Assembly (NCBI GenBank): GCA_965235115.1
Contig: OZ249436.1
Coordinates: 16,556,001 to 16,620,000, forward strand
Source of the DNA: Laetmonice hystrix
Lineage: Eukaryota
Length of the DNA: 64,000 bases
Direction of reading: 5' to 3'
Shown piece after piece: positions 57,693-60,600 of the stretch. The notes beneath the pieces are model-generated. The model made no database searches, was not told the origin of the DNA, and saw only the letters and a program-made list of their open reading frames with translations. Position 1 is the stretch's first letter, and each line of letters starts with the position of its first letter. A program made the translations under genes and the position numbers.

Positions 57693-60600
57693 CTATTGGA
57701 ACTCGTCATCAGAACTTAGCAGTGTCGTCTTCTCGGTGAATCGGCGGTTTTGTCCGGCGAGGTTGGGTTGGCGTGAATGTGGTGTGGGGTGGGCCAGCCC
57801 ACCCGGCGCTCCCACTGTTGGTGCAGCCACGCCCACCGAGCCACCGACCGTGCCGTTACGCAGCTGGTCATGGGTCAATGGGGGCTGTGGGGGCTGGGCC
57901 TCGCGGTCTCGGTAGAAATCCATCTCTTCCTTGGGAATGTTGGTTCCCTGTTGGGTGTACTGCTGGTACTGCGGGTGGAAGTTATGGATAGCATCCGCCA
58001 TAATGTCTTTGGGGTTCATTGTTTCCTTGAGGTTCGACGAGATGCTCTGCAGCGACACAGTGCGCCCCTGAGTTATCGTCTCCTGTTGTGCATACAGGTT
58101 GTACGGGAACGCGAAGTGAAGTGCGATAGCAGCGAAGAACATCTCAATGCAGATGATAAAGTTCTGGTAGCCAGCTGCAACAGTTCCGACACCAGAGACA
58201 CGCTCTCCTTGCTCAGAGTAGATGGCACTGATCACTCCCGCCTTCTCCAGGATGGCAAGGATCACTCCTGGAACACGATAAATCCAAGTCACTAAATACC
58301 CAGTAAGACACAGCCGCCAACACCACACATTTCAACCACCACACCCCTCAGCCAACCCTTGTCTCTCACCCCTCAGCCAACCCTTGTCTCTCACCCCTCA
58401 GCCAACCCTTGTCTCTCACCCCTCAGCCAACCCTTGTCTCTCACCCCTCAGCTAATCCTTGTCTCTCACCCCTCAGCCAACCCTTGTCTCTCAACCCTCA
58501 GCCAACCCTTGTCTCTCAACCCTCAGCCAACCCTTGTCTCTCACCCCTCAGCTAACCCTTGTCTCTCACCCCTCAGCCAACCCTTGTCTCTCACCCCTCA
58601 GCTAATCCTTGTCTCTCACCCCTCAGCTAACCCACGACCACTTGGCCACACAAACCCATCCGTGCCCCTCGCTGCACCTCACCTTGCCAGAAGGACAGAA
58701 AGACCACGGATTTGACGATGAGAAACTTGAGAACCGGGTCGTAGCAGCTGAGGAGATCTCTGGTTGCGAAGTAGAAGAGGAAGAGTGCGTAGAGTGCCAG
58801 GCTGATGGACACATTGTACACGATCGTCACGTACAAATAGCCGCTCTTAGGCCTGAAAAACATCATTACAATGTTTAGTACAGGTAGCCACTCTTGGGCC
58901 TGGAAAAAATCATTACAATGTTTAGTACAGGTAGCCACTCTTGGGCCTGGAAAACATCATTACAATGTTTAGTACAGGTAGCCACTCTTGGGCCTGGAAA
59001 ACATCATTACAATGTTTAGTACAGGTAGCCACTCTTGGGCCTGGAAAACATCATTACAATGTTTAGTACAGGTAGCCACCCTTGGGCCTGGAAAACATCA
59101 TTACAATGTTTAGTACAGGTAGCCACTCTTGGGCCTGGAAAACATCATTACAATGTTTAGTACAGGTAGCCACTCTTGGGCCTGGAAAACATCATTACAA
59201 TGTTTAGTACAGGTAACCCTATGCTGTGACCACTCTGACAGGTAACCCTATGCTGTGACCACTCTGACAGGGAGCCACACTCAGGCCTGGAAAACACTGT
59301 TAGAATGGTCAGAAAGTTATTATGATCACTTTTTCTATGTTGTTCACATAATTCTTGGTGTTGACCACTGTTTACTTCAGACAATCATGCAATGCCTTCA
59401 AACAAAAAATTAGGAAAACCCAACAAATTTATGACTGGATATGAGTAAACACAACAATTATTAGGTCGAGTGTTGTGAGTTTAAGTTGAGTTTACTTACG
59501 AAAAATCTCCATCCTTGTAGTACTGGAACGCTTGCAGTATAAGTGTGATCAGGGCCATAAGTGGTTTCACAATGCAGAATTGGAGGGTAGCCTACCAAGA
59601 CAAAAGACATTATTACACAGAAATCAGCAAAGACAGAAATGAAGAAAGATGACAAAGAAAGAAAGAAAAAAACCTCTCTAGAGAAAAAAAACCTTGCCCA
59701 TCTGCCCTAATAGTTAGATGAGTTATAACCAGAACTATTTCCCTTTTTTCAATTTTAAAACAAATGCGGTGCTTACGAGACCCTTGTATGTCGGCAATGT
59801 CTGTTACTGTTTGGATATATTGTTGCCAATGATGGAGTAGGAGGTGACAAATCTGAGACAAGACAGCACAGTGACTCAATGAAGCTATGATATAGTATGA
59901 TACAGTAGTGTAGATACTCACCTGTTTACAAAAGCGTAGGAAGCCGATGGTATATTGTTTTCCTGCTAAACAACACGTGCAGTAGATGCAACTTGACCTG
60001 AAGAGGACATACATAAAGAATCCATGTCAGAATAATCTCAGCCACAGCCTGACCATCGTGATAGAACCCATGTCAGAATTTATACCCATGGCCAGACAAT
60101 AGGTCTCTGGCCATGCGTACATATTACATAATCTACTTGTATAATGTAGAGACAATAGGTCTCCGGCCATGGGTACGTATTACATAATCTACTTGTATAA
60201 TGTAGAGACAATAGGTCTCTGGCCACGCGTACATATTACATAATCTACTTGTATAATGTAGAGACAATAGGTCTCTGGCCATGGGTACATATTACATAAT
60301 CTACTTGTATAATGTAGAGACAATAGGTCTCTGGCCACGCGTACATATTACATAATCTACTTGTATAATGTAGAGACAATAGGTCTCTGGCCATGGGTAC
60401 ATATTACATAATCTACTTGTATAATGTAGAGACAATAGGTCTCCGGCCATGGGTACGTATTACATAATCTACTTGTATAATGTAGAGACAATAGGTCTCC
60501 GGCCATGGGTACGTATTACATAATCTACTTGTATAATGTAGAGACAATAGGTCTCTGGCCATGGGTACGTATTACATAATCTACTTGTATAATGTAGAGA

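Follow-up and report, generated by a model that had tools for sequence, protein, structure and literature searches.

A Mirage Minisatellite at a TMEM184B Acceptor: Exonic Differences Between Core Consensus and Live Exon Are All Silent

Gene Content of the Window

The window, by which we mean the whole 64,000-nt stretch analyzed (Laetmonice hystrix, assembly GCA_965235115.1, contig OZ249436.1, positions 16,556,001 to 16,620,000), carries on its minus strand a gene that we assign by homology to the TMEM184 family (TMEM184B). Exon homology by tblastn and the Pfam domain PF03619 (Solute_trans_a), which scored above its 24.9-bit cut-off in four exons, both agree with this assignment. With the last exon as query, 1265 proteins were returned, of which the best 120 were examined; the best named homologues among the matches listed were lophotrochozoan (Capitella, 60% identity, and Tubulanus, 61%), and four homologues chosen from the 120 listed were used to place six exons by tblastn (alignment 60–100%). 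The exons at 61756-61591, 60759-60669, and 59997-59922 were placed by tblastn and the open frame, as was the one at 59500..59591, which lies upstream of the array and whose donor starts the array-bearing intron (647 nt, phase 2, minus strand). The live exon adjoining the array (58683..58852, 170 nt, the fifth coding exon in the window) and the last coding exon (57693..58267) were supported by tblastn, Pfam, and frame, the latter also by the homologue search. Joined, the six exons form a single open frame of 389 codons plus a stop. Residues G, Y, and Y of the motif copied in the array are conserved in 118, 117, and 120, respectively, of the best 120 of the 1265 homologues. The gene is CpG-depleted (observed/expected 0.52), and its codon counts are CCC 8 vs. 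CCT 2, TAC 20 vs. TAT 8, and CTG 13 vs. TTG 2.

On the plus strand, an FN3 receptor-like gene spans 15300-49470 with a 329-codon open frame over seven exons. Its first exon (~15300-15426) resembles a signal peptide; FN3-like exons and one transmembrane exon (46035-46116) follow, and the last exon is long and contains a coding repeat (47447-48091). None of 14 candidates scored as a homologue of it, and one PDB match fell below 0.001 (Dscam, E = 2.3e-4). We presume that its product resembles a fast-evolving cytokine-receptor-type protein. A Pfam scan of 402 of the 417 stop-to-stop frames in the window returned only the TMEM184 exons, a weak FN3 match, and a weak transposase match. Long frames at 31192-33660 (+), inside the span of the receptor-like gene, account for the weak match to Transposase_21 (CACTA-type, E = 1.3e-4), and the ends of a CACTA-type element could lie in the related repeats at 24287-26011 and 41501-42568.

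Tandem repeats make up 31% of the window, and of its 28 annotated splice sites, 9 are no more than 30 nt away from an array. In addition to an array at 46084..46661, considered below, further junction-linked arrays in the receptor-like gene (+) repeat donors or acceptors at 45018-45562, 44104-44520, 43141-43765, and 18162-18776. The 33-bp unit of yet another array (15657-15815) shares a run of 17 bases with the first exon of the receptor-like gene (~15385-15401), though it lies ~230 bases into the intron. Among the junction arrays of this gene only 46084..46661 overlaps an exon beyond a few bases; across the window, an exon overlap of at least 20 nt is seen for only two arrays, and the control for the TMEM184B array is hence a single case. 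In the other genomes scanned, no similar stretch was found.

Anatomy of the Acceptor Array

TRF reports the TMEM184B repeat at 58831-59215, with a period of 47, 8.2 copies, and 97% matches. Register alignment bears out the composition proposed by an earlier, sequence-only reading of this DNA: each 47-bp unit consists of 25 intron bases, ending in CAG, followed by the first 22 bases of the exon. Seven units form a homogenized core (58878..59206, minus strand, delimited by TRF and register alignment), with AGs ending at 59182, 59135, 59088, 59041, 58994, 58947, and 58900, and the terminal unit (58831..58877) carries the live acceptor, whose AG ends at 58853; in each of runs X1 and X3, a single contig links this unit with the exon. 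Five of the seven core units are identical, and the core holds two private variants in its 329 bases, one a replacement (59080, S>G in copy 3) and the other intronic (58908).

The live unit differs from the core consensus at 5 of 47 positions. One is intronic (-4, 58856), and the four in the exon, at +4 (CCC in the core, CCT in the live exon; 58849), +10 (AGT/AGC; 58843), +16 (TAC/TAT; 58837), and +17 (CTG/TTG; 58836), are all silent, as had been claimed from the letters alone and as holds for the consensus of the seven copies. The changes at +16 and +17 adjoin (CC vs. TT) and may be a single event, and +10 is part of a CpG in the live exon. From -25 to -5 the live unit is identical to the core.

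The copy set proposed at the outset stood as far as the seven copies go; it missed both the S>G variant of copy 3 and a ninth, diverged edge copy at 59267..59311 (minus strand, AG ending at 59287), which we recognized by its match to the core consensus at 35 of 45 positions, the best background match elsewhere in the window being 25 of 45. The edge copy differs from the core at 10 of 45 positions (22%), six of them within -25..-5, and has three replacement changes (K>E, S>C, and Y>S). It is broken up by a doublet of 29 bp (59209..59271, 2.2 copies by TRF), in which comparison revealed partly exon-like pieces, and it retains a canonical branch-site-like CTGAC at -23. At -4, +10, +16, and +17 it has the core base, and at +4 the exon base. 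The first duplication probably produced the edge copy as its original upstream half. When all eight non-live copies are counted together, four distinct differences from the exon are silent and four are replacements. A four-base match, TGAC, at both ends of the duplicated segment is within chance but may mark the duplication breakpoint.

The array has three of the features that define a mirage minisatellite, namely a head-to-tail repeat spanning an intron-exon boundary (47 bp, 8.2 copies), a splice signal repeated within the intron, and a concerted core from which the boundary copies are excluded (core 2/329, edge 10/45, terminal 5/47), and we class it as a mirage minisatellite. Mirages are further marked by arrays that vary in length among haplotypes or cells, and by mRNA that is spliced normally despite the added sites. 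CAG is kept in all seven core copies and in the edge copy, all within the 647-nt intron. As the sequence-only reading held, use of an earlier AG runs into a stop, which is true for all seven core AGs: from each of them the frame closes immediately after the seven copied codons, 192–474 nt before the last junction, and only from the last AG does the 389-codon frame stay open. A stop that far ahead of the last junction would make a transcript a substrate for decay by the usual rule. The alternative that the units are micro-exons, or that the array reflects intron gain by tandem duplication, was ruled out by the in-frame stop seven codons after each core AG; the unit has only weak GT sites, and any route free of duplication loses the conserved protein.

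Alleles and the Assembly

Read data came from four sequencing runs of one sample in one study, which are thus not mutually independent and are possibly the assembly's own source, and contigs, which lose rare variants, were built over 58634-58900 only. Run X1 gave one contig across 58634-58886 with no differences from the assembly. A contig from run X3 had two third-position changes, at 58846 (silent, Lys, within the 22-nt overlap) and 58720 (Leu), and it appears to be a second exon allele, the individual being apparently heterozygous. All four exon-type bases and the -4 base are found no farther than 10 nt from the SNP at 58846, and the second allele carries them in cis. Run X2 was partial, without cover over 58785-58849, and run X4 gave no contigs. 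Among the contigs over 58634-58900, none at 80% likeness joined core-type bases to the remaining exon. The two alleles differ at 2 of ~39 silent sites (5%, interval 0.6–19%), and the core differs from the live exon at 4 of ~7. A collapsed 77-bp repeat contig reached 13–15x the estimated haploid depth, compared with 5.7–7 expected from the assembled haplotype alone; depth is not copy number, and this gives a weak hint that the array is present in both haplotypes. A further X3 contig (depth 2.3) shows nine differences where it aligns, at 58771-58835, before running into unlike sequence, and is probably a TMEM184 gene from another organism or a paralogue.

Given an apparently heterozygous live exon, the array of one haplotype might have been assembled onto the exon of the other, the case named beforehand as fatal to the sequence-only reading, but this is most improbable, since both alleles carry the exon-type letters in cis (the X1 contig without a difference, the X3 allele with the same four bases and the same base at -4), core-type bases joined to the remaining exon were absent as described above, and no such switch was seen in the contigs of either run. 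Alignment with other haplotypes had been proposed as a check; in this one sample, the second allele is of the exon type at all four sites.

How Surprising Is a Silent-Only Core?

If every change were neutral, four silent differences out of four would have a probability of 0.003–0.018. The sequence-only reading had argued on such grounds that neutral intronic drift would rarely give the pattern. This is the wrong null, because an exon under purifying selection fixes only silent changes, and the argument also omits the four replacement changes in the other copies. With exon-side changes restricted to silent ones and equal time on both branches, the probability rises to 0.03–0.11.

The edge copy provides a clock of ~0.13 changes per site per branch, from which 1.8 silent changes are expected (4 seen, p = 0.12) and 2.0 replacements (0 seen, p = 0.14). 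The joint chance of at least four silent changes with no replacement is 0.016, or 0.04 if the CC/TT pair is one event (three events). When the changes are polarized on the edge copy, the intronic branches have one silent and four replacement changes, and the exon branch has three fixed silent changes plus one silent polymorphism and no replacement. Among 30–100 arrays, the probability of at least one such case is 0.38–1.0. Taken alone, the TMEM184B locus is a mild anomaly.

The control is a donor-side mirage behind the transmembrane exon of the receptor-like gene (46084..46661, plus strand), with a 55-bp unit that includes 33 exon bases. Compared with the exon, all seven full copies have the same two changes, one nonsense and one silent, and two rarer variants are replacements; this count leaves out three copies with an 11-bp deletion. 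Pooling the distinct variants of both window arrays, 5 of 12 are silent, no excess over a proportion of 0.30 (p = 0.28).

Comparison With Known Junction Repeats

The junction mirage is already known as a repeat type from lancelets. The Adh3 and troponin C genes of lancelets reportedly also contain mirages. In work on lancelet globin genes, mirages are minisatellites of this type with a homogenized core and excluded boundary copies (PMC3087553), and they are described as leaving splicing undisturbed (PMC3087553, PMC3902484). The words "synonymous" and "silent" do not occur in the main text of PMC3087553. Compared by eye from its Additional file 4, the haplotype-1 core of BflGb6 (D3-D5) differs from its own exon at six sites, all silent (6/6; p = 0.01–0.04 under a neutral-copy model, for one locus), and three of the six core bases are those of the haplotype-2 exon. 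The haplotype-2 core, by the same inspection by eye (PMC3087553, Additional file 4), has three silent differences, one replacement, and a silent boundary codon; in the boundary copies there are replacements as well as a stop and indels.

The BflGb6 acceptor mirage thus resembles the TMEM184B array in repeating an intron 3′ end together with an exon start in tandem, with a homogenized core and a diverged boundary copy, and in having a silent-only core beside replacement-laden boundary copies. The two differ in unit length (47 bp vs. 150–160 bp in BflGb6), in their AGs (all seven intact in the TMEM184B core, lost in D3-D5), in host (a lophotrochozoan vs. a lancelet), and in that core-type bases are unseen in the second TMEM184B allele whereas the BflGb6 core bases are partly those of the other haplotype's exon. 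Over the two cases not picked for silence (receptor-like gene 1/2, lancelet 6/6), 7 of 8 differences are silent (p = 0.02–0.09 under the neutral-copy model).

Human junction repeats offer a second comparison. The human CBS insertion 844ins68 resembles the TMEM184B array in duplicating an intron/exon junction at an acceptor, but has one extra copy rather than seven or eight, and its discarded copy has the replacement mutation I278T, unlike the TMEM184B core. According to PMC2630376, splicing strongly favors the downstream site of CBS c.[833C;844_845ins68], and the exon piece lying upstream is removed. In F7, the terminal unit of the 37-bp IVS7 VNTR spans an exon-intron boundary and repeats the splice site; it differs in lying at the donor side and in having only four exon bases per unit, so that no coding comparison can be made. 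PMC1557585 reports that its pseudo-sites, identical to the real donor, are normally unused, and names CBS IVS13, 6-16, LAMIN B2, and PDGF as related junction-spanning minisatellites. No junction-spanning units are described in the accessible part of a paper on intronic minisatellites of earthworm metallothionein (PMC12783039).

Origin of the Silent-Only Core

We lean, at somewhat less than even odds, toward a core re-amplified from an older or allelic working exon start, with both sides mostly under purifying selection. A first tandem duplication across the TMEM184B acceptor would have left the edge copy, to decay neutrally; unequal exchange would later have copied a functional terminal unit into the intron; the array would then have been homogenized into the intron part of the last unit, up to about -5, and the live exon lineage would afterward have come to differ by C/T changes. 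On this proposal the core would be without replacements because it descends from a working exon start, purifying selection acting on both sides.

Several observations agree with such re-seeding. The core has no replacement and four silent fixed differences; replacement changes occur nowhere but in the edge copy and as a single private variant. The edge copy shares with the core three of the four exon-site bases (+10, +16, +17) plus -4, and codon use in the gene favors the core's C at +4, +16, and +17 as the probable older state; together with BflGb6, these bases lend support to the original suggestion that an older or allelic version of the coding sequence survives in the array. Silent sites of the live exon are polymorphic, including one within the overlap, and the BflGb6 core and the two cases not chosen for silence point the same way. 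Against it, neither allele of the sampled individual has a core-type exon, the control core has a fixed nonsense change and the pooled window variants lack a silent excess, and the lancelet count is one locus, read by eye. The model probability of at least four silent differences under re-seeding is 0.005 at 5% diversity and 0.03–0.10 at 10–18%, compared with 0.012–0.017 under the neutral-copy model. At the TMEM184B locus, re-seeding has no advantage in fit over an old neutral copy aided by luck, and we put it slightly ahead because of the lancelet BflGb6 pattern.

An old neutral copy is itself a serious possibility, in our view perhaps better than one chance in three. Here the core would be the intronic half of the first duplication, neutral ever since, and silent-only by luck in a case picked from many arrays; the live exon would have fixed about three silent changes and the core one, the absence of core replacements being chance. 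The clock expectations and their joint probability leave room for this, the intronic branches have the mixture of changes expected of neutral sequence while the exon branch has four silent changes and none other, among 30–100 such arrays at least one silent-only case has an appreciable to very high probability, and about a third of the window's splice sites are near arrays. In addition, the CpG at +10 stands in a CpG-depleted gene, so one of the silent changes would be mutationally favored. The lancelet core weighs against an old neutral copy in being silent-only though not selected for that.

Selection at silent sites is improbable. In this account, which the sequence-only reading had raised as selection for distinguishability, the live exon, along with -4, would have diverged from the decoys to aid acceptor choice, through enhancers, a longer U run, or hairpin loss. 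All five differences do fall within -4..+17, and divergence at neutral sites there is 5/8, compared with 22–27% for the edge copy (p = 0.02–0.04); the second allele brings a fifth silent difference in the overlap; and in a lone 47-nt unit the decoy AG sits in a stem that is weakened by +16/+17 (opening 5.2 vs. 3.9 kcal/mol). At 40, 70, or 100 nt of context, however, most decoys are no more closed than the live AG, so that folding does not make it more open beyond the one-unit context. The unit folds no better than shuffles (z = -0.9), the placement of one of two allele SNPs in the overlap (p = 0.24) and the clustering of T-ending codons (p = 0.21) are unexceptional, and the F7 pseudo-sites, equal to the real donor, stay silent (PMC1557585), so that decoys need not differ in sequence from the real site.

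Continuing gene conversion in both directions between the array and the exon, with only silent changes surviving the filter, we regard as very unlikely. Identity of the last unit to the core at -25..-5, where the edge copy differs at six sites, indicates that exchange reaches the last unit. Exchange in both directions should nevertheless remove silent differences faster than replacement ones; the exon-type base is found in none of the seven core copies at the four sites, and neither allele has a core-type base. Exon-array exchange by conversion, the other option offered by the sequence-only reading, would on its own be expected to erase just those differences that are observed.

Acceptor Choice and Wider Meaning

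Returning to re-seeding from a working exon, a broader form of it is that the cores of mirages serve as archives of fossil alleles, seeded again and again by working alleles of the exon in marine invertebrates of high polymorphism, a tentative idea to which we give about one chance in three. We did not find a silent-only core described in print as a record of exon alleles, in a search that reached few subscription papers and supplements. If the idea is true, cores genome-wide should show mainly silent differences from live exons and keep a record of alleles that are extinct or unsampled, and thousands of arrays would form a built-in outgroup that polarizes silent changes at exon edges from one genome. 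They would also be a natural series for a spliceosome choosing the last among many near-identical acceptors, for which the TMEM184B locus, with a choice among eight, would be a compact test bed. Should cores generally hold working-allele versions, junction minisatellites would turn over from their functional end, between alleles.

The open frame and the conservation of the protein suggest that TMEM184B is spliced normally despite the extra sites. Sequence of the adjoining exon is reported, by Reed and Maniatis, to decide the choice among duplicated acceptors. The last AG likely wins since it alone precedes the whole exon and its donor, a preference that we infer because CBS 844ins68 prefers its downstream site and lancelet mirages splice normally; any leak to earlier AGs would be cleared by nonsense-mediated decay. 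Two candidate discriminators were set aside. Hairpin masking of the decoy AGs is present in the 47-nt unit and lost in larger contexts, and a branch-site difference is absent, the upstream motif being the same in all core units and the live unit. The joins between the end of an exon copy and the start of the next intron piece form TACTAAAC at -28..-21 (58878-58881, and at every core junction), a motif that we take to be near the yeast branch consensus, and the exon copy of the last decoy may by now supply the branch site for the live acceptor.
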